Below are positions 2,641 to 10,464 of a DNA stretch of 64,000 nt, in pieces; the first letter of the stretch is position 1; each line of letters opens with the position of its first letter. The position numbers and the translations under genes were made by a program. Source of the stretch: Lutibacter sp. (GTDB taxonomy: Bacteria > Bacteroidota > Bacteroidia > Flavobacteriales > Flavobacteriaceae); the NCBI RefSeq assembly GCF_030692605.1, contig NZ_JAUYUD010000093.1, forward strand, positions 34 through 64,033, written 5' to 3'. The notes beneath the pieces are model-generated. The model saw nothing but the letters and a program-made list of their open reading frames with translations. It was not told where the DNA came from and did no database searches.

Positions 2641-2963
2641 TTATATTAACGTGAGTTCGATATAAGTTAGAACAATACTATATGAATATCAGTTATTTAT
2701 GTTATTTTAAAGGAGGTACGACTGTGGCAATCTGTTTATGGATAGTCAGATTGCTACATTTTACTTAAAAAAAGTAAAATTCAAAATGATGACAAGGTCA
2801 TGAGTTTGTTTTTCAATGGTTCTTTTGTCATGCCGAGAAGTCGAGGCATCACACAGTTGATAAACGTAATGTGATTCCTCCTTTGGTCGGAATGACACTA
2901 ATTTTTAACTCCTAATTATTAGTGGTGTGCGATTATTGTTATATCGAAATCACGTTATATTAG
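2641..2963. repeat. MITE-like unit bounded by short inverted repeats; it encloses copy L of the 110-bp element
   Basis: aacgtgagttcgatataa (2648-2665) is the reverse complement of ttatatcgaaatcacgtt (2939-2956) with 1 mismatch in 18. Internal hairpins are gcaatctg/cagattgc (2727-2754) and attttactt/aagtaaaat (about 2757-2779). Confidence 0.5.
2788..2897. repeat. ~110-bp modular repeat element, copy L (reverse complement of 6349-6460)
   Basis: gatgacaaggtcatgagtttgtttttcaatggttcttttgtcatgccgagaagtcgaggcatcacacagttgataaacgtaatgtgattcctcctttggtcggaatgaca aligns with the reverse complement of 6349-6460. There are about 12 differences over about 112 nt. Confidence 0.85.
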
Positions 2964-3062
2964 TTAAAATCATTCTAAATAGCACTTTAAAAACTAAAAT
3001 TATACTCACTTAATTTTTGATTTTTTTTTATTTTAATTATTTTTAGTTAAAATTAAAAAGCT

Positions 3063-3947
3063 ATGATAAAACGCACACTATTTTTTAGTAATAAAGCAAC
3101 TATAAACACTAAAAATGAACAACTTGTAATAAAAACTAGTAATAGAGAAGTAACTGTACCTATAGAAGATATAGGATTTATAGTACTAGAACATCATGAA
3201 ATTTATATTACCATACCAAGTTTAATTAAACTTTCCGAAAATAACGTTGCGGTAATATTTTGTAATCAAAAGCATATGCCAACAAGTATGCTATTAAATT
3301 TAGATAATCACCATATTCAGCAAGAAATTTTTAAATACCAAATTAATGCAACTGAACCACTTAAAAAACAACTTTGGCAACAAACTATTAAAACTAAAAT
3401 AAAGCACCAAGCACAACATTTACAGTTATTAAATAAACCATTTGAGGTTTTAAATTATTACGAATCAAAAGTTTTAAGTGGAGATACCACCAATATGGAA
3501 GCAGCCGCTGCTGCGCATTATTGGAAACATTTATTTGATTATGATTTTAAAAGAGACCGTTATGGTGTTTACCCAAATTTATTTTTAAATTATGGATATA
3601 TTATTTTAAGAGCCGCAGTTGCCAGAGCATTAGCAGGTAGCGGATTATTAAGTACGTTAGGGATTCATCATCATAATAAATACAATGCATTTTGTTTGGC
3701 TGATGATATTATGGAACCTTTTAGACCATTAGTTGATCTAAAAGTTATTGAGATTATGAATAATTTTGAAGAACAAGAGCTTACAACTGACATTAAAGCT
3801 GAACTTTTAAAGGTGCTTACTGAAACTGTCTATTTTGAAAATGCTAAAAGCACATTAATGGTTGCTTTATCTAAAACTACAAGTTCTCTCCAACAGTGTT
3901 ATACTGGTAATATTAAAAAAATTATTTATCCAGATTTATGGAACTAA
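3063..3947 (+). CDS. cas1: CRISPR-associated endonuclease Cas1 (type II)
   Basis: 294-aa ORF with Cas1 C-terminal catalytic region NYGYIILRAAVARAL...LGIHHHNKYNAFCLADDIMEPFRP. It overlaps cas2 by 10 nt and lies next to the CRISPR array. Confidence 0.93.
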   Translation: MIKRTLFFSNKATINTKNEQLVIKTSNREVTVPIEDIGFIVLEHHEIYITIPSLIKLSENNVAVIFCNQKHMPTSMLLNLDNHHIQQEIFKYQINATEPLKKQLWQQTIKTKIKHQAQHLQLLNKPFEVLNYYESKVLSGDTTNMEAAAAAHYWKHLFDYDFKRDRYGVYPNLFLNYGYIILRAAVARALAGSGLLSTLGIHHHNKYNAFCLADDIMEPFRPLVDLKVIEIMNNFEEQELTTDIKAELLKVLTETVYFENAKSTLMVALSKTTSSLQQCYTGNIKKIIYPDLWN

Positions 3948-4267
3948 ATGGTTATAGAATTATGTGGTTATTTGTATTTTTTGATTTACCTACTGACACC
4001 AAAAAAGACAGGAAAAATGCACAGCATTTTAGAAAAAATCTATTAAAAGATGGATTTACAATGATGCAATTTTCTGTATATGTTCGGCATTGCGCAAGTG
4101 GGGAAAGCGCTGATGTTCATGAAAAAAGAATTAATAAATTACTTCCTCCATTAGGTAAGGTAAGTATCTTAAGAATAACTGATAAACAATTTGGAAACAT
4201 TTTAAATTTTTGGGGAAAATTTGAAGTGCCAAAAGAACCACCTCCCCAACAACTTGAGCTTTTTTGA
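3938..4267 (+). CDS. cas2: CRISPR-associated endoribonuclease Cas2
   Basis: 109-aa ORF with N-terminal YRIMWLFVFFDLPTDTKKDRK, typical of type II Cas2. It is translationally overlapped with cas1. Confidence 0.9.
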   Translation: MELNGYRIMWLFVFFDLPTDTKKDRKNAQHFRKNLLKDGFTMMQFSVYVRHCASGESADVHEKRINKLLPPLGKVSILRITDKQFGNILNFWGKFEVPKEPPPQQLELF

Positions 4268-4273
4268 ACAAAT

Positions 4274-4639
4274 AAAATGCCCCAATCTTGCACTTTCCAT
4301 ACAAAAAAGGAGCATTTTTATTTACGATATTTTACTTTAAAATCTTGATTATTAGAAGGCAACGAGCCAACTAATATCGTTTTCTCTAATCTTTAATCAA
4401 ATCGAAAAATATAAAATGATGAATAAAAACCCAAAAAAGGTCTGTTTTTTCGATTCACAAACACACCCTAAAAAATAAAATGAAGTGTTTGTAAACCACA
4501 TTACAATTTAAAAAATGCCCCAATCTTGCACTTTACATACAAAAAAGGAGCATTTTTATTTACGATATTTTACTTTAAAATCTTGATTATTAGAAGGCAA
4601 CGAGCCAACTAATATCGTTTTCTCTAATCTTTAATCAAA
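4274..4639. repeat. 238-bp-period tandem duplication of the cas2-proximal array flank plus the first 29 nt of a CRISPR repeat
   Basis: 4274-4401 equals 4512-4639 (128 nt, one mismatch at 4297 versus 4535, no indels). Copy 1 ends in a truncated repeat aatatcgttttctctaatctttaatcaaa (4373-4401). Copy 2 continues into the intact first repeat at 4611. Confidence 0.9.
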
Positions 4640-6293
4640 CCACAACATTTTAAATCTTACTAAAAAATTATGAATAAATATCGTTTTCTCTAATCTTTAA
4701 TCAAACCACAACGAAGTTACTGAAAAGACCGCACCTGCATAAAATATCGTTTTCTCTAATCTTTAATCAAACCACAACAGAAAACATTTTGTTGAATAAA
4801 TTAATATCAATATCGTTTTCTCTAATCTTTAATCAAACCACAACAACATTTGCGATGCGACACAATATGATATTAATATCGTTTTCTCTAATCTTTAATC
4901 AAACCACAACACATTGTTCACAATGGCAAACTCTAACTTTAATATCGTTTTCTCTAATCTTTAATCAAACCACAACAGGTGACACCGTAGTGGCAGGAAC
5001 TGTTTTAATATCGTTTTCTCTAATCTTTAATCAAACCACAACCTGCTACAATTTTATATAACGCTTCTCTTTAATATCGTTTTCTCTAATCTTTAATCAA
5101 ACCACAACACCCTGCCATTAAAGCTATAAATGTAAAAAAATATCGTTTTCTCTAATCTTTAATCAAACCACAACATCTTTACAAGTCCAAAACGCCTTTT
5201 CTTAATATCGTTTTCTCTAATCTTTAATCAAACCACAACAGCAAACATTTTGTTGAATAAATTAATATCAATATCGTTTTCTCTAATCTTTAATCAAACC
5301 ACAACACTAAAACCATCGGCCAAAGATGATAATGAAATATCGTTTTCTCTAATCTTTAATCAAACCACAACATACCAACCGTGCATCAAAACCATTATAA
5401 AAATATCGTTTTCTCTAATCTTTAATCAAACCACAACCAGGCGGTGCCTTTGTTACAGTTACAAAAAAATATCGTTTTCTCTAATCTTTAATCAAACCAC
5501 AACTTTAGTTTCCGAATTAAACCAACTTTCTTTAATATCGTTTTCTCTAATCTTTAATCAAACCACAACAACCACCGCAAAACTGTTTGTGAAAGGAAAA
5601 ATATCGTTTTCTCTAATCTTTAATCAAACCACAACAGCATCGGTATAATTAGCAACAAATACCAAAATATCGTTTTCTCTAATCTTTAATCAAACCACAA
5701 CACAAAGAAATTAAAGCTTTATTAGAATCACAATATCGTTTTCTCTAATCTTTAATCAAACCACAACTGCAAAGTCAAGTTATTACTGCAACAACAAAAT
5801 ATCGTTTTCTCTAATCTTTAATCAAACCACAACAAAGATGGCTTATTAGATTTACCTTTTTCAATATCGTTTTCTCTAATCTTTAATCAAACCACAACGA
5901 GCGCGCCATTAACAGGTGAGAAAATAAGAATATCGTTTTCTCTAATCTTTAATCAAACCACAACAAAGACGAAGAAATTTATAAGGAAGCGAAAAATATC
6001 GTTTTCTCTAATCTTTAATCAAACCACAACATCGTGGTATCTACTTCTTGTTCTACTATCAATATCGTTTTCTCTAATCTTTAATCAAACCACAACGGCT
6101 GATTGAACTGCCATAAGAACAATTTTAATATCGTTTTCTCTAATCTTTAATCAAACCACAACGCAATAATGCTTGTTGTACACTTACACTTTAATATCGT
6201 TTTCTCTAATCTTTAATCAAACCACAACCGGTCTCCATACGGTGCAGGATGTTGACTAATATCGTTTTCTCTAATCTTTAATCAAACCACAAC
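4611..6293 (-). CRISPR. Type II-C CRISPR array: 26 repeats of 36 nt and 25 spacers of 29-30 nt
   Basis: All 26 repeats are identical. The plus-strand form is AATATCGTTTTCTCTAATCTTTAATCAAACCACAAC; the crRNA sense, on the minus strand, is GTTGTGGTTTGATTAAAGATTAGAGAAAACGATATT. Repeat starts: 4611, 4677, 4743, 4809, 4875, 4941, 5007, 5073, 5139, 5204, 5270, 5336, 5402, 5468, 5534, 5600, 5666, 5732, 5798, 5863, 5929, 5995, 6061, 6127, 6193, 6258. Strand was assigned from complementarity to the tracrRNA anti-repeat. Confidence 0.97.
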
Positions 6294-6344
6294 AAAACCT
6301 CGCTTCGCTCGGTTTTGTTGTGGTTTGGCTGTTTAAGATTATTC
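6284..6344. repeat. Palindrome made of the terminal repeat and an inverted degenerate repeat copy
   Basis: aaaccacaacaaaacc (6284-6299) pairs perfectly with ggttttgttgtggttt (6311-6326) around the loop tcgcttcgctc. gttgtggtttggctgtttaagatt (6317-6340) is a degenerate crRNA-sense repeat lying on the opposite strand to the array. Confidence 0.85.
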
Positions 6345-6348
6345 TTTT

Positions 6349-6460
6349 TGTCATTCCGACCAAAGGAGGAATCTCATTACGTTTAGCAACTTTGTGATAC
6401 CTCGCCCACTCGGCATTGACAAAAGAACCATTGAAAAAACAAACCCTTACCTTGTCATTC
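6349..6460. repeat. ~110-bp modular repeat element, copy R (inverted relative to 2788-2897)
   Basis: tgtcattccgaccaaaggaggaatctcattacg...ccttgtcattc is the reverse complement of copy L at roughly 89-90% identity. Degenerate related modules are at 6453-6480 (plus strand) and 6527-6559 (minus strand). Confidence 0.85.
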
Positions 6461-6572
6461 CTAAAAAATGAATCGCATTACTATATAAATTGTTATTCCA
6501 ATTATATTAGTTATACGTTTTAATGATTATGAGATTTCTCTCTATCGTTCGAAATGACAAATGCCTGTTTGC

Positions 6573-7074
6573 TTGTCATTCCGACAAAGGAGGAATCGCA
6601 TTACAGCTATTGCTTATGTGATGCCTCGTTTCCCTCGATATGATAAATTATATATTTCCAATATTTCAAAGAACGCAAAGCAAACAACTATTTATTATTC
6701 AATCGCTTGCCCAAAAATGTGATTCAAAGATCTAAAAGTTGGATTAAATGTTCGTATTAAATCCAATTTCTTTTCTCTGCGCCATCCTTTTAGCTCCTTT
6801 TCACGAGCAATAGCCTGTTGCACCCAACCATATTTTTGGTAATATACCAAATGTTTCAAATTGTATTTAGCAGCAAAAGTCTTTTTCCCATGAGCTATAT
6901 TCTCTTTATGCTCAATTAAACGTCTTCCCAAATTATTAGTCATCCCAATATAAAAAGTTGTGCGATAATTGTTTGTAATTATGTACACATAAAATGAATA
7001 TATTCCTTCTGAAAATTCTATCATTCTTTATTAATTTTCAATCTTTTGCGATTCCTCCTTTGTCGGAATGACAA
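6573..7074 (-). mobile_element. GIY-YIG gene cassette framed by perfect 28-bp inverted repeats (candidate selfish or mobile unit)
   Basis: ttgtcattccgacaaaggaggaatcgca (6573-6600) is the exact reverse complement of tgcgattcctcctttgtcggaatgacaa (7047-7074). The 502-bp unit holds a single ORF (6695-7024) and ends 3 nt from the cas9 stop codon. Confidence 0.6.
6695..7024 (-). CDS. Stand-alone GIY-YIG nuclease family protein (YhbQ/COG2827-like)
   Basis: 109-aa ORF with motifs FYVYIITN (GIY), FYIGMTNNLGRRLIEH (YIG plus Arg) and AREKELKGW (catalytic Glu region). No extra DNA-binding domain is present. Confidence 0.85.
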   Translation of the reverse strand: MIEFSEGIYSFYVYIITNNYRTTFYIGMTNNLGRRLIEHKENIAHGKKTFAAKYNLKHLVYYQKYGWVQQAIAREKELKGWRREKKLDLIRTFNPTFRSLNHIFGQAIE

Positions 7075-7077
7075 ACA

Positions 7078-10000
7078 CTATACTTTTTTTATTTTTCCAG
7101 AAACTGAAATTTTTACTTTTATTGGATTAAAGTTTACCCAACCGGTTTTCCCTTCTCCAAAACCTTGAATTCTAATATAATAAGGTTGAAAGTTATTCTG
7201 TATTGATGATTCCGTATTTAATCGAAATTCATAAAATTTAGACGATAATTTCTGAACCCTAAACAAATGTTCTTTCAAATTTTCATAATCGGGATTTTCC
7301 CAATCAATTTCATCATCATCTAAACCCAACAAAAACATATCATTAATATGCAAAGTAGTTACAATTTCTTTTCCATTTATTGGCAATTGGTAAACTTCCT
7401 GTTTTTGCCTTTTACGTTCAACTGCTGTCCAAAAAGTAACAATTTCTTCATTTAAATCATCATTAATATCTTTATAAATTAAAACATGATGGTTATTTCT
7501 AGGGTTTACCCATTGGTTGGTATTGTCTTTTAATTGTTCTGCTCCTCCAATATTTTCTTTCATTCTTACTTTTAAAACAGGCACAGGGTTTCCGTTTTTA
7601 TTGGGCAAAAATATTTGGGGTTGCTTAATTCCATTTTCATCAACTATAAAAAACGCATTATCAGGTACGTTTCCTTTTACGTAACCCCCCATCACATTCA
7701 CTTGTTTTAAAATTAAATTTTTTATGGTTTCATCAACAACTTTATTCACCTGTTTTTCAGTAACTAATGTATCAATAGGCTTTCTAATATGGAAAGCCTC
7801 TGAACCAAATGGCGCTATTCTTTGACCATATACAAATTCTTTATGCAATTGTCCTCTTGCCGCAACACCTGTGTTTTTATATATTTTACCATTCTTTTTT
7901 GTGGTATGGTTTCTTAAGGTAATTGTATTGTTAACCTTTTTATGTGAAACCAATATTTTATGAATCATGTTTTCTGCATCACTGTTAAAACCTTCCCAAG
8001 GCATTGGAAAATCTTTTAAATCGTAATTACGGTTATACCTGTTCCATTTTGATAATTCTTGTAAATAGCTTGTTTTACTGCAAGCCATAACCAAGGCGTC
8101 AACTGCATGATGTCGATGATCTTCCCGTGTTTTTTCGCCATCATCTTCATTTAATATATAATTTAAACCCCACTTTTGGCGTAAATTGGCGGTCATTTGC
8201 CCAGGTGCAACTGTCACCTTTTCACAAATTTGCGATAAATAATTTTTTGCTTCTTTACTTATAAATCTTGTGTCATTTAATTGTCTTGAAGAAAAATCAT
8301 CATCAAATTTTTGTTGAACAAACCTTTTAAACTTTTGATATGATTTAGGATATTCTTTAGTATCCGAAAATAATTTTAAAGCCCGTTCCTTAATTGCTGA
8401 CCAATTCGCTTCATCATTTCCGTAAAATTCAAAAGGAGTTTTATCACCTTTTAACCTATTTTCATCAGCATAACAAAGTGTTTTATTCGCAAAACTATCA
8501 TTTAATGAGCGACTCCAAGGGTGAATATGTTCAATTTGAATTTCACCAGTAAACAATTTATGAAGCGGTATTGAAGCTCCTGTATATGGGCAAGTTTTTT
8601 TACACTCTTCCCACAATTTATATTTCAATAAACTTTCATGAGTTACTCGTTGGCCTTCTTCTTCAATTCTTGCTTTTACCCTATCATTTTCTCTTTCAAG
8701 TCTTTTTTGCTCATTTCTAAGATTATTTCTTTGTGATTTGGAAGCTTTTAAGTCACGAGCCATTTCAACTTTAATTTCATCTAATTTTCCGTATTGATCA
8801 ATTAATTCATTCACCAATTTACGCACTTCAAACAATGCTGTTATTACAATTGGGTTTTTAATTGCCTGAATAGTTTTATCAGCAGTATTATCTACAGGAA
8901 GTTTTTTTAAAATTGTTTTAGCTTCAATGGTTGCTGAATGATGGTATAATTTTTTAAGTTGTATATCAGTAAAATTATATTCATTTTTAAGAACTTCTTT
9001 TATTGTCTCAATAAAACCGCCCGTAATTTTAGTTCTAACAATAGCGGGAATATTGTCTAAAATAAAGTCCTTTTTATTTTTTTCTAATTGTTCCCAATCT
9101 TCCCCAAAAATACTTTTTACGCCACCTAATACAACAGCAATATCATATACAAATCCCATTTCTAAAAACGGCAATATATTATTAATCGCTTTTCTGCTTA
9201 AATTTGAATAACCCTCTTTTAAGTTAAATTTTGAAATAGCAGTTGCTTGCTCTTCATTAAAACCCCATTTATCAATTGCATATACTTTAACTTTATCTTT
9301 ACTATCAAAAAAGTGCAGTACGTGCCAAATATCTTCCTGTTCTTTTTCAGAATATTCGAACCATTTATTGCCAAAATATTTTTTGTTAGAAAGATTTGAA
9401 ATGGTATATGTTCCCACAATCTTATCATCATCTTTGTAATTAAACTTAAACTCTGCACTTATTCTACCAATTGCTTTCCTTAAATCTTTAAATAACGGTT
9501 TTTCCTTTTGTAAAAGAACACCAATCATCTTTTCTCTTTCAAGTTCATTTAGTTTATTCCCATTATATTCAACAGTATTTACCCATTGATAGATACGAAA
9601 CAACTCAAATGGAATTGCACTTAATGGGCATTTTGTCTTTGTTGGCTCAAATGAACAATTACCAACCAAATGTTTTTGAGAACGAAGCGGACGTTGGTGA
9701 AATATAATGCCGTCTTCATTATAGCCATCACTTTTTCTGCCACCAAAAATAGTTTTTAACTCATCCGATAATTCTGAATGATAGTGAACTTGCTTTTTCC
9801 AAATCAATTCAAATTCATCAACATACATTTGTCTTGTTGTATATCTATTTCTAATTCGCTCAATATCTTTTGAGAATGGTTCATTATCTTTAGGATAAAT
9901 TTCAAAAAGATAAGAACCTAAAGTTTTTCCTTTAATACTTTCTCTTGTTTCATCAATACCTATTTTCCCTTCTTTAGGTTTGCCTTTATAAATTGCTCCA

Positions 10001-10464
10001 TCATCCTTTCCAGCACTTCTGCTATTACTCAAAAAACCCCTTCGTTGTATTAAATGATAAAAAATTCGTCCAAGTTCTTCCAATGAAATTTTTTCATTTA
10101 AAGCCTTATTTCTTAATTCGTATGGATTCAAAGCAAACCATCCTTTAAGCTTACTCTCTGGAAACCTTTTGGTATTTTTCCATTCTTCAAAATCTTCAGT
10201 TTGGAGAGGACACATTTTAACCTCTGAAAGGGTCTTCAACAGAATCTTTTTTCTTAACCTTCTTCTAAATAGTTGTCTCCTCACTCCTCTTGCACCAGTT
10301 CTTGAAGCATTTTTTGACATTTCTCTTCCTTCACCATCTCCTAAATTTTCAACTCCCATAGGAAATATCCTGCTTCCAATGCCTAAAATTTTATTTTGTG
10401 TATCATCCACAACCGCCCAACCAATAGAGTTAGTGCCTAGGTCTAGTCCTAAAATTTTTGTCAT
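7078..10464 (-). CDS. cas9: CRISPR-associated endonuclease Cas9, type II-C, compact (1128 aa)
   Basis: Motifs seen: RuvC-I ILGLDLGTNSIGWAVV, Arg-rich bridge helix RRQLFRRRLRKK, RuvC-II IKVEMARDL, HNH IEHIHPWSRSLNDSFANKTLCYADENRLKGDKTPFE, and RuvC-III HRHHAVDALV. A tracrRNA, the array, cas1 and cas2 are in the locus, and there is no csn2 or cas4. Confidence 0.96.
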   Translation of the reverse strand: MTKILGLDLGTNSIGWAVVDDTQNKILGIGSRIFPMGVENLGDGEGREMSKNASRTGARGVRRQLFRRRLRKKILLKTLSEVKMCPLQTEDFEEWKNTKRFPESKLKGWFALNPYELRNKALNEKISLEELGRIFYHLIQRRGFLSNSRSAGKDDGAIYKGKPKEGKIGIDETRESIKGKTLGSYLFEIYPKDNEPFSKDIERIRNRYTTRQMYVDEFELIWKKQVHYHSELSDELKTIFGGRKSDGYNEDGIIFHQRPLRSQKHLVGNCSFEPTKTKCPLSAIPFELFRIYQWVNTVEYNGNKLNELEREKMIGVLLQKEKPLFKDLRKAIGRISAEFKFNYKDDDKIVGTYTISNLSNKKYFGNKWFEYSEKEQEDIWHVLHFFDSKDKVKVYAIDKWGFNEEQATAISKFNLKEGYSNLSRKAINNILPFLEMGFVYDIAVVLGGVKSIFGEDWEQLEKNKKDFILDNIPAIVRTKITGGFIETIKEVLKNEYNFTDIQLKKLYHHSATIEAKTILKKLPVDNTADKTIQAIKNPIVITALFEVRKLVNELIDQYGKLDEIKVEMARDLKASKSQRNNLRNEQKRLERENDRVKARIEEEGQRVTHESLLKYKLWEECKKTCPYTGASIPLHKLFTGEIQIEHIHPWSRSLNDSFANKTLCYADENRLKGDKTPFEFYGNDEANWSAIKERALKLFSDTKEYPKSYQKFKRFVQQKFDDDFSSRQLNDTRFISKEAKNYLSQICEKVTVAPGQMTANLRQKWGLNYILNEDDGEKTREDHRHHAVDALVMACSKTSYLQELSKWNRYNRNYDLKDFPMPWEGFNSDAENMIHKILVSHKKVNNTITLRNHTTKKNGKIYKNTGVAARGQLHKEFVYGQRIAPFGSEAFHIRKPIDTLVTEKQVNKVVDETIKNLILKQVNVMGGYVKGNVPDNAFFIVDENGIKQPQIFLPNKNGNPVPVLKVRMKENIGGAEQLKDNTNQWVNPRNNHHVLIYKDINDDLNEEIVTFWTAVERKRQKQEVYQLPINGKEIVTTLHINDMFLLGLDDDEIDWENPDYENLKEHLFRVQKLSSKFYEFRLNTESSIQNNFQPYYIRIQGFGEGKTGWVNFNPIKVKISVSGKIKKV

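Follow-up and report, generated by a model that had tools for sequence, protein, structure and literature searches.

What is a stand-alone nuclease gene, framed by perfect inverted repeats, doing directly behind cas9 in a type II-C CRISPR locus? The locus lies in a 64-kb stretch of Lutibacter sp. DNA (contig NZ_JAUYUD010000093.1), called the window below. The window derives from a groundwater metagenome, its G+C content is 29%, and the nearest relatives of its sequence are Lutibacter and other Flavobacteriaceae. The unit in question is 502 bp long from arm to arm, and its sole sizeable open reading frame (ORF), which is intact, encodes a 109-aa GIY-YIG protein, P0001. We consider it likely that this unit is a flavobacterial system of the Ssn type, in which a nuclease gene is accompanied by its cognate hairpin repeats, and that it occupies a slot of the CRISPR locus as an optional passenger.

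The Ssn proteins are a family of single-domain GIY-YIG proteins (CDD cd10448; Chenal et al. 2025, Nat Commun 16:2388, PMC11893778). The target of SsnA of Neisseria meningitidis is a 28-nt hairpin repeat, the NTS, which it binds exclusively in single-stranded DNA; its cut lies a few bases upstream of this hairpin. Repeats of the SRM type lie near 71% of the Ssn homologues and on both sides of the gene in 42%. Cleavage specific to single-stranded DNA was demonstrated and no mobility mechanism was shown; the NTS-ssnA-NTS layout, which resembles an insertion sequence (IS), and the parallel with REP/RAYT pairs were already pointed out, and the text mentions neither Bacteroidota nor CRISPR loci (PMC11893778). 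A first-pass annotation of the window, made from the sequence alone, had raised the possibility of a nuclease paired with its cognate repeat. Such a pairing is already described, being that of the Ssn/SRM system (PMC11893778); the annotation's remark that no mobility mechanism has been described for it is still true. The core pairing of nuclease and hairpin, published in 2025, is not new. The member found here is new and its motif is divergent.

Structure of the Unit

The sequence TTGTCATTCCGACAAAGGAGGAATCGCA occupies positions 6573-6600, and its exact reverse complement occupies 7047-7074. A repeat search extends the arms of this 28-bp inverted repeat to 31 nt at 97% complementarity, and a 24-mer core of the arm has two exact occurrences in the window, as compared with 0 matches in 100 shuffles. 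A 53-aa ORF on the plus strand (6561-6722) overlaps the GIY-YIG gene and is without support. Three nucleotides (7075-7077) separate the cas9 stop codon from the repeat arm. The first-pass annotation had described the perfect repeat framing a 502-bp unit, the catalytic-domain-only ORF and the 3-nt spacing, and all of these are borne out. It had also placed the arms in the same module family as the repeats that flank the cas1-cas2-array segment; the modules at 2868-2899 (minus strand) and 6347-6378 (plus strand), which differ by one inserted C, confirm this. No target-site duplication is visible at the ends of the unit, there is no second copy of the unit within the window, and Rfam at gathering thresholds finds no family there.

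The GIY-YIG Protein

P0001 matches PF01541 over residues 11-86, and the Pfam scan reveals no further domain. With 109 aa and a single domain, it lies within the 150-aa limit applied to the Ssn family. The operational cut-off for Ssn homologues is a blastp E<1e-10 with at least 75% coverage (PMC11893778). An NTS-flanked ssnA ORF of Neisseria gonorrhoeae (L127, 1474-1773) served as a proxy for the N. meningitidis SsnA reference, CAX49033.1. P0001 shares 39% identity with it over 88 aa (91% coverage and 66 bits; the E is 8e-17 when the search space is of proteome size, with a database size of 1e6), values that lie within the published cut-off when the gonococcal proxy is used. The match to the N. 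gonorrhoeae sequence in the plasmid collection has an E of 1e-11 against 7.3 Gb. Eight sites that fit the published SRM pattern are found within 750 bp around the gonococcal ORF, and 7 of the 8 also fit the strict NTS. The gonococcal sequences are two 2.17-Mb N. gonorrhoeae chromosomes filed as plasmids in PLSDB (L127 is NZ_CP119142.1, 1880219-1883473; the other is NZ_CP119140.1).

Residues Y13, Y25-I-G27, R35, H39 and R74-E75-K76 of P0001 are kept in 87 relatives, and the GIY and YIG tyrosines, the arginine, the histidine and the REK glutamate are common to these relatives and the gonococcal ORF. The family is very large, being represented by 7983 clusters (50% identity) at E<=1e-3 and by 1901 at E<=1e-10, nearly all of them short proteins. 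The exact P0001 protein is not on record in the contig index. Sequence comparison assigns P0001 to the Ssn family, and its flanking repeat to a variant that the published definition misses.

Association of Gene and Hairpin Modules in Flavobacteria

Relatives of P0001 at 53-92% identity are encoded in 80 loci of Flavobacteriaceae and Weeksellaceae, with one genome scanned per species. Counted under a strict module definition, these loci contain 299 modules, versus 3.6 in shuffled sequence. Module density is 4.6 per kb at 300 bp or less from the gene and 0.157 per kb further out, a difference of about 29-fold. At least one module is present in 71 of the 80 loci, and the gene has modules on both sides in 49. 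The nearest upstream module is in the sense of the gene in 35/57 cases and the nearest downstream module is inverted in 39/63. The frame of module, gene and inverted module seen in the window is therefore the usual one, and it recurs across genera. The idea of a nuclease with a cognate repeat, raised in the first-pass annotation, is borne out in kind by the density near the gene and by the number of loci with modules.

Where a sense module lies 70 bp or less upstream of the gene, it starts 3-22 nt after the preceding stop codon in 14/21 scoreable loci, and the preceding gene, whatever gene it is, is co-directional in 20/21. Because this stop-abutting edge recurs behind other genes, the 3-nt spacing behind the cas9 stop codon is one case of a family trait. 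Homologues of P0001 outside cas loci are mostly syntenic between species on both flanks. The locus of Flavobacterium aureirubrum (L012, 38-1734) contains two identical GIY-YIG genes 780 bp apart amid 12 same-sense modules; these are spaced roughly 45-210 bp apart, and the arrangement looks like a local tandem amplification of gene and modules together.

An ordinary housekeeping GIY-YIG protein (UPF0213/YhbQ-like), or a homing cassette lying between unrelated REP-like repeats, is a most improbable account of these data. Repeats of the REP type are common in intergenic DNA, and P0001 has weak matches to the UPF0213 protein EF2693 (PDB 1ywl, E 0.009) and to TIGR01453, the group I intron endonuclease model (24.7 bits). 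However, UPF0213 is matched far more weakly than the NTS-flanked ssnA ORF, the TIGR01453 score is well under the cut-off of 56.05 bits, no intron or intein context is present, and modules are enriched about 29-fold by the gene and frame it in 49 of the loci. The homing endonucleases I-TevI and the T4 Seg proteins resemble P0001 in their GIY-YIG catalytic domain and in forming a selfish-looking cassette, but they have a C-terminal DNA-binding domain, cut double-stranded DNA at a homing site and are without flanking hairpin repeats; the 109-aa protein has no DNA-binding extension. The first-pass annotation had likened the unit to both homing-endonuclease cassettes and REP/RAYT pairs. The former likeness fails on the TIGR01453 score and the missing extension, and the latter holds for a gene framed by repeats with satellite copies.

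The Hairpin Module

The modules follow the formula (T)GTCAT-NNN-GA-S-NNN-S'-GA-N'N'N'-ATC. Each 28-nt arm consists of a directional 5' (T)GTCAT tag, a stem of eight positions, a 3-nt loop and a 3' ATC tail. The stem pairs ATNNN with N'N'N'AT and is closed by a C-G or G-C pair; the two G/A positions of either side would make two tandem G.A mismatches, a reading of the alignment that earns no credit from the folding tool. Covariation was scored at sites gathered in 126 related loci with the fixed letters as the only anchors. The inner stem (NNN/N'N'N') is complementary in 294 of 311 anchored sites, compared with 76 expected if the arms were independent, and at least 10 different stem types occur. 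The loop-closing pair played no part in site selection; among 42 distinct modules it is CG in 27, GC in 10, UG in 2, AU in 1 and UA in 1, and one is unpaired. The stem letters vary between lineages while complementarity is kept. This covariation of the stem arms and of the loop-closing pair argues that the hairpin is under selection.

A covariance model (R1) was built from the modules of flavobacterial relatives. In the window it detects 9 module copies, which are confined to 2824-7075; the remaining 59 kb contains no module at E<0.1. Two of the copies form a composite at 6347-6423, which folds as a long DNA hairpin at -10.9 kcal/mol (z -2.7), and the composite at 2824-2899 folds at -15.2 kcal/mol (z -3.7). 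Positions 6585-6628 align with 6361-6404 as a direct repeat at 75%. Short contigs that cover 6349-6391 in the source metagenome run of the window add up to a word depth of about 1311, whereas the surrounding sequence has 25. The module is highly repeated in this metagenome, to which other organisms may contribute. The contigs over 6349-6391 (run X1) are 35-44 nt long and have depths of 141-650, versus 25 for the locus.

The flavobacterial module and the NTS (CGTCATTCCCGCGMAVGCGGGAATCYRG) share GTCATTCC...GGAATC, their overall length and the 8-position stem. In both systems a single-domain GIY-YIG protein of about 100 aa is encoded between directional hairpin repeats that flank the gene on both sides, with a 5' GTCAT tag and ATTCC/GGAAT stem ends, in an IS-like layout, and copies of the repeat are found in clusters and apart from the gene as well. 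The flavobacterial version differs in that tandem G.A mismatches replace C-G/G-C pairs in the inner stem and the loop has 3 nt. It also differs in its setting, a low-GC flavobacterial host and the variable slot of a type II-C CRISPR locus, and is known here from sequence.

Several results weigh against placing the unit with Ssn. The published SRM pattern, HGTCWYN(0-2)YYVSBRHN(0-5)WNVSBRGN(0-2)RNCYNB, which does match all NTS variants, has 0 matches in the window and 0 matches in the 583 kb of the 80 flavobacterial loci. Conversely, R1 fails to detect the Neisseria NTS copies in L127, even with its filters off. Single modules show no unusual folding stability compared with shuffles (z -0.9 and -1.6). 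The gonococcal ssnA ORF, used as the proxy for family homology, has no in-frame ATG. A nearby ATG is out of frame, and another start codon or a pseudogene is possible. Since R1 misses the NTS copies, membership at the level of the repeat rests on the common layout and on the homology of the partner protein. NTS-like modules do lie on both sides of the P0001 gene, though no sites that fit the SRM pattern lie on both sides within 500 bp.

The published SRM pattern misses a whole flavobacterial module clade. Surveys that use it therefore under-count Ssn/repeat pairs in low-GC Bacteroidota. The flavobacterial modules show which stem positions may vary and could help to define Ssn recognition, which matters for the proposed use of these proteins as programmable single-strand DNA cutters.

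Comparison with Other Repeat-Associated Nucleases and Proposed Action

The RAYT proteins are reportedly REP-associated tyrosine transposases of the HUH/Y1 family (Nunvar et al. 2010; Ton-Hoang et al. 2012). The unit resembles a REP/RAYT pair in that inverted hairpin repeats enclose a nuclease gene that is resident and mostly syntenic, the repeat multiplies as intergenic doublets (BIME-like composites), and recognition presumably takes place on single-stranded hairpins. It differs in having a GIY-YIG fold and not an HUH fold, and no covalent tyrosine intermediate is expected; a Pfam scan of the unit for an HUH/Y1 transposase-like protein returned GIY-YIG only. Elements of the IS200/IS605 type are likewise small, with subterminal hairpin ends recognised in single-stranded DNA. 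Their ends, however, are found on one strand rather than as inverted repeats, their transposase is of the HUH type, and neither a circle junction nor a fixed target motif is seen at this unit.

By analogy with SsnA, the substrate of P0001 would be the module extruded as a hairpin from single-stranded DNA, as may arise for example in replication, conjugation or transformation; P0001 would bind this hairpin and then make a nick in the same strand, about 3 nt to the 5' side of the tag. The SsnA cut 3 nt upstream of the tag is itself a reading of published oligonucleotide lengths. On the minus strand this would put the nick at most 1-2 nt from the cas9 stop codon, and on the plus strand near 6570. 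Gene and repeats probably act like a REP/RAYT pair, with the gene resident and the modules as satellites that multiply locally and elsewhere. The unit would be kept, lost or swapped by recombination between the cas9 stop codon and the oldest end of the array, and it would not be a working part of CRISPR-Cas. The data show the anatomy of the unit, its homology to the NTS-flanked ssnA ORF, the association of gene and modules, the covarying stems and the polymorphic presence of the unit; cleavage of single-stranded DNA by P0001, the nick position and a part of the nuclease in module spread are what we infer.

The Slot between cas9 and the Array

A cas context is present in 16 of the 80 loci. In these loci the order is cas9, the GIY-YIG gene on the same strand, the array and inverted cas2-cas1. 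The gap from cas9 to the GIY-YIG gene is 46-77 bp in most loci and reaches about 370 bp where a parD remnant intervenes; in L040, cas1-cas2 is seen and cas9 is not. The unit is found behind two Cas9 types that are 28-43% identical to one another, type A of 1126-1133 aa, which is that of the window, and type B of about 1210-1314 aa. Cas9 orthologues in L001-L117 are 63-78% identical to the Cas9 of the window. Across most cas-linked loci, cas2 is 78-92% identical, and the repeat family is the same throughout. Between L002, L006, L008 and L025 on the one hand and L001, L007, L017 and L036 on the other, the repeat family is shared, cas2 is about 85% and cas1 about 73% identical, and the Cas9 types (1128 aa versus 1286-1314 aa) are only 28-35% identical. 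On sequence grounds, this suggests that the effector gene has been exchanged against a stable adaptation module. The occurrence of one repeat family and one cas1-cas2 module with two Cas9 types is background for compact-Cas9 mining and for the study of CRISPR-locus shuffling.

To avoid a bias toward GIY-YIG genes, metagenomes were scanned with Cas9 itself. The 37 A-type loci with a readable junction, which include the window and seven genome loci, have an intact GIY-YIG gene in 15 cases, a truncated one in 1 (L088, where it runs directly into a repeat), a ParD/ParE pair in 9 (identified by Pfam PF03693 and PF05016), a helix-turn-helix gene in 1, and an empty slot in 11. In empty slots, 39-216 bp lie between the cas9 stop codon and the start of the first repeat. 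Among eight B-type Cas9 loci picked regardless of GIY-YIG, six have ParDE, one is empty and one reaches the contig end; a GIY-YIG gene or nearby module is found in none of the eight (0/7 informative). The unit is optional, and ParDE appears to be the commoner tenant of the slot. The polymorphic presence and absence of the unit in relatives, which the first-pass annotation had proposed looking for, is evident at these orthologous cas9 loci. The cas9-array junction of these flavobacterial type II-C loci is a cargo slot that holds ParDE, the Ssn unit, another gene or nothing.

That the gene is a functional accessory of type II-C CRISPR-Cas, for example one that processes single-stranded DNA for spacer capture or serves as a second line of defence against incoming single-stranded DNA, is very improbable. 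It does recur right behind cas9 on the same strand and, in most loci, at a narrow distance, it does so in several genera and with two very different Cas9 types, and on the GIY-YIG tree the cas-linked copies cluster, requiring 5 changes versus 21 in shuffles. However, about 57% of the orthologous A-type loci have no intact copy, the informative B-type loci have none and ParDE in 6 cases, the same slot is elsewhere taken by an unrelated toxin-antitoxin pair or stands empty, no cas context surrounds 64 of the 80 closest homologues, and P0001 has no meaningful match in PADLOC, where hits are at noise level only. Presence is not consistent within the subtype. ParDE cassettes occupy the same place between the cas9 stop codon and the array and are likewise small, self-contained, optional cargo, but their proteins are unrelated and their logic is another one, that of an addiction module.

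The ParDE pairs in the slot are those of metagenome loci L085, L090-L093, L106, L110, L115 and L117 and of B-type loci L128, L130, L132, L133, L137 and L139. A palindromic operator-like sequence (ttggtgtaaatttacaccaa) precedes the ParD/ParE pair.

Gain, Loss or Exchange of the Unit

The states of the slot are scattered on the Cas9 tree. Presence of GIY-YIG requires 10 changes for 15 rows, as compared with a shuffled mean of 11.6; at least 9 of the 10 changes are forced by well-supported branches of the Cas9 tree, and there is no difference from shuffled labels. On the GIY-YIG tree the cas-linked copies fall into about five groups, with A-type and B-type contexts mixed, in a tree that is poorly resolved (109 columns). 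Two pairs of sister loci differ in the slot, L099 (occupied) and L101 (empty), and L017 and L105. Within each pair cas9 is 96-100% identical until its last 200-300 nt, where identity drops to 33-85%. The haplotypes differ from inside cas9 onward, which points toward an exchange through homologous recombination between locus variants. The first-pass annotation had called the unit inserted, a term that calls for qualification. Clean insertion at an otherwise identical empty site was considered and rejected, as divergence begins inside the 3' end of cas9 and the short spacers that flank the slot differ.

In nearly all occupied A-type loci a module begins 2-5 nt after the cas9 stop codon; this position is taken in L001, L016, L024, L039, L100, L108 and L036. 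Lone or degenerate modules are present at the slot of the 'empty' loci L109, L094 and L089. The constant module position, these solo relics and the truncated gene of L088 favour an old residence with decay. In loci L005, L015 and L020 the GIY-YIG gene stands in the place of parE, beside a retained parD or a parD remnant. A relative that is about 93% identical (X2) has the unit and a different set of modules between unit and array.

Could the unit be an autonomous transposon, with the GIY-YIG nuclease as its transposase and the nick sites as its ends, which lands behind co-directional stop codons? We regard this as unlikely, though not to the degree of the accounts weighed above. With inverted modules at its ends, the unit is built like an IS. 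Its left edge lies close behind the stop codons of A-type cas9 (2-5 nt), of parD (1-2 nt) and of unrelated genes (4-22 nt), the upstream gene is nearly always co-directional, and in L005 and L020 a parD-abutting unit replaces parE. Presence and absence alternate between near-identical cas9 loci, L099 versus L101 and L017 versus L105. The principal support is that a nick 3 nt 5' of the tag, as predicted from SsnA, would coincide with that left edge. Against this, the hallmarks of an insertion sequence (a target-site duplication, near-identical copies and clean empty sites) were not found, with one copy in the window. The divergence of sister loci inside cas9 makes the swap look like homologous recombination, empty sites differ from occupied ones in their flanks, and synteny across species holds for most copies outside cas loci. 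A scan of viral contigs yielded no close relative. No excision or inversion joint was found in the metagenome contigs compared with the region, although assembled contigs would hide rare forms. If the transposon account were true, it would describe a transposition system outside the recognised transposase classes, with a GIY-YIG single-strand nuclease of about 100 aa as its sole protein, and it would explain why a stop codon, be it that of cas9, of parD or of an unrelated gene, adjoins the left edge and why the unit takes the place of parE in three Flavobacterium CRISPR loci. An Ssn-type pair resident in the slot is the reading we prefer.

The repeats had also been suspected, in the first-pass annotation, of driving a rearrangement of the locus. 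This suspicion is not upheld. Orthologous loci without any module (L084, L094, L098, L104) have cas2-cas1 inverted relative to cas9, as do B-type loci with ParDE, and a collinear layout is found only in more distant loci (L107, L120-L124). Because module-free loci show the same layout, the convergent arrangement is inherited and was not made by the repeats, and a flipping of cas1-cas2-array by inverted modules is rejected.

Features of the Window and Minor Observations

The features of the unit and its surroundings are collected in Table 1.

Table 1. Positions of the unit, its hairpin modules and the neighbouring CRISPR-Cas features in the window.
Feature	Position	Strand	Basis or remark
Upstream hairpin module, SRM-like, left arm, in the sense of the gene	7047..7074	-	Covariance model R1, 46.1 bits, E 5e-11
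ssn-like gene, single-domain GIY-YIG, 109 aa (P0001)	6695..7024	-	PF01541, E 5.5e-14
Downstream hairpin module, right arm, inverted relative to the gene	6573..6600	+	R1, 47.5 bits, E 2e-11
Weak sister module; two-module composite with 6573-6600, like 6347-6423	6615..6647	-	R1, 14.5 bits, E 0.11
Further module copy, TTC/GAA stem (GTCATTTCGAACGATAGAGAGAAATC)	6528..6561	-	R1, 33.1 bits, E 4e-7
Degenerate module copy	6451..6479	+	R1, 21.3 bits, E 0.001; direct repeats
Two-module composite (6347-6378 and inverted sister 6391-6423), outermost on the array side	6347..6423	+	R1, 39.8 and 14.5 bits
Inverted copy of the two-module composite, upstream of cas1 (2868-2899, minus strand; sister form 2824-2855, plus strand)	2824..2899	+	R1, 36.4 and 35.6 bits
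cas9, 1128 aa, type II-C, upstream of the unit, co-directional	7078..10464	-	HNH_4 and RuvC_III domains
CRISPR array with about 27 copies of the repeat at a period of 66 bp, flanked by the unit and by cas2-cas1	4400..6294	-	Repeat scan
cas1	3063..3947	+	Beyond the array
cas2	3938..4267	+	Beyond the array

On the array side of the block, an inverted module is followed in most loci by a conserved gttcWttgacat motif, and empty loci have the motif too. It lies about 30-100 bp before the first repeat in L104, L098, L095, L109, L017, L083, L100, L016, L039 and L134, at the cas9-proximal end of the array, and is present whatever fills the slot; the window itself lacks it. The motif may serve as a promoter of transcripts that enter the array.

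Positions 6283-6327 of the window contain a degenerate inverted copy of the first 12-24 nt of the repeat (cttaaaca.ccaaaccacaac), followed by a short hairpin. Such an inverted partial repeat lies just before the first repeat, on the strand of the CRISPR RNA, and is also present in L017, L083, L007, L100, L016, L039, L091 and others; it is conserved whatever the state of the slot (occupied, empty or ParDE). This copy might represent a second anti-repeat beside the trans-activating CRISPR RNA (tracrRNA) upstream of cas9.

Hairpin-forming insertions are found inside CRISPR repeats in Flavobacterium branchiophilum (L015, 4500-4700), before the first repeat of L108 and in the gap of L090. The insertion of L015 is about 55 nt long, lies between GTTGTGGTTT and TTGATTAAAGATTAG, and recurs in two or more successive repeats, which looks as though a repeat that had taken up a small palindromic element was then duplicated together with it.

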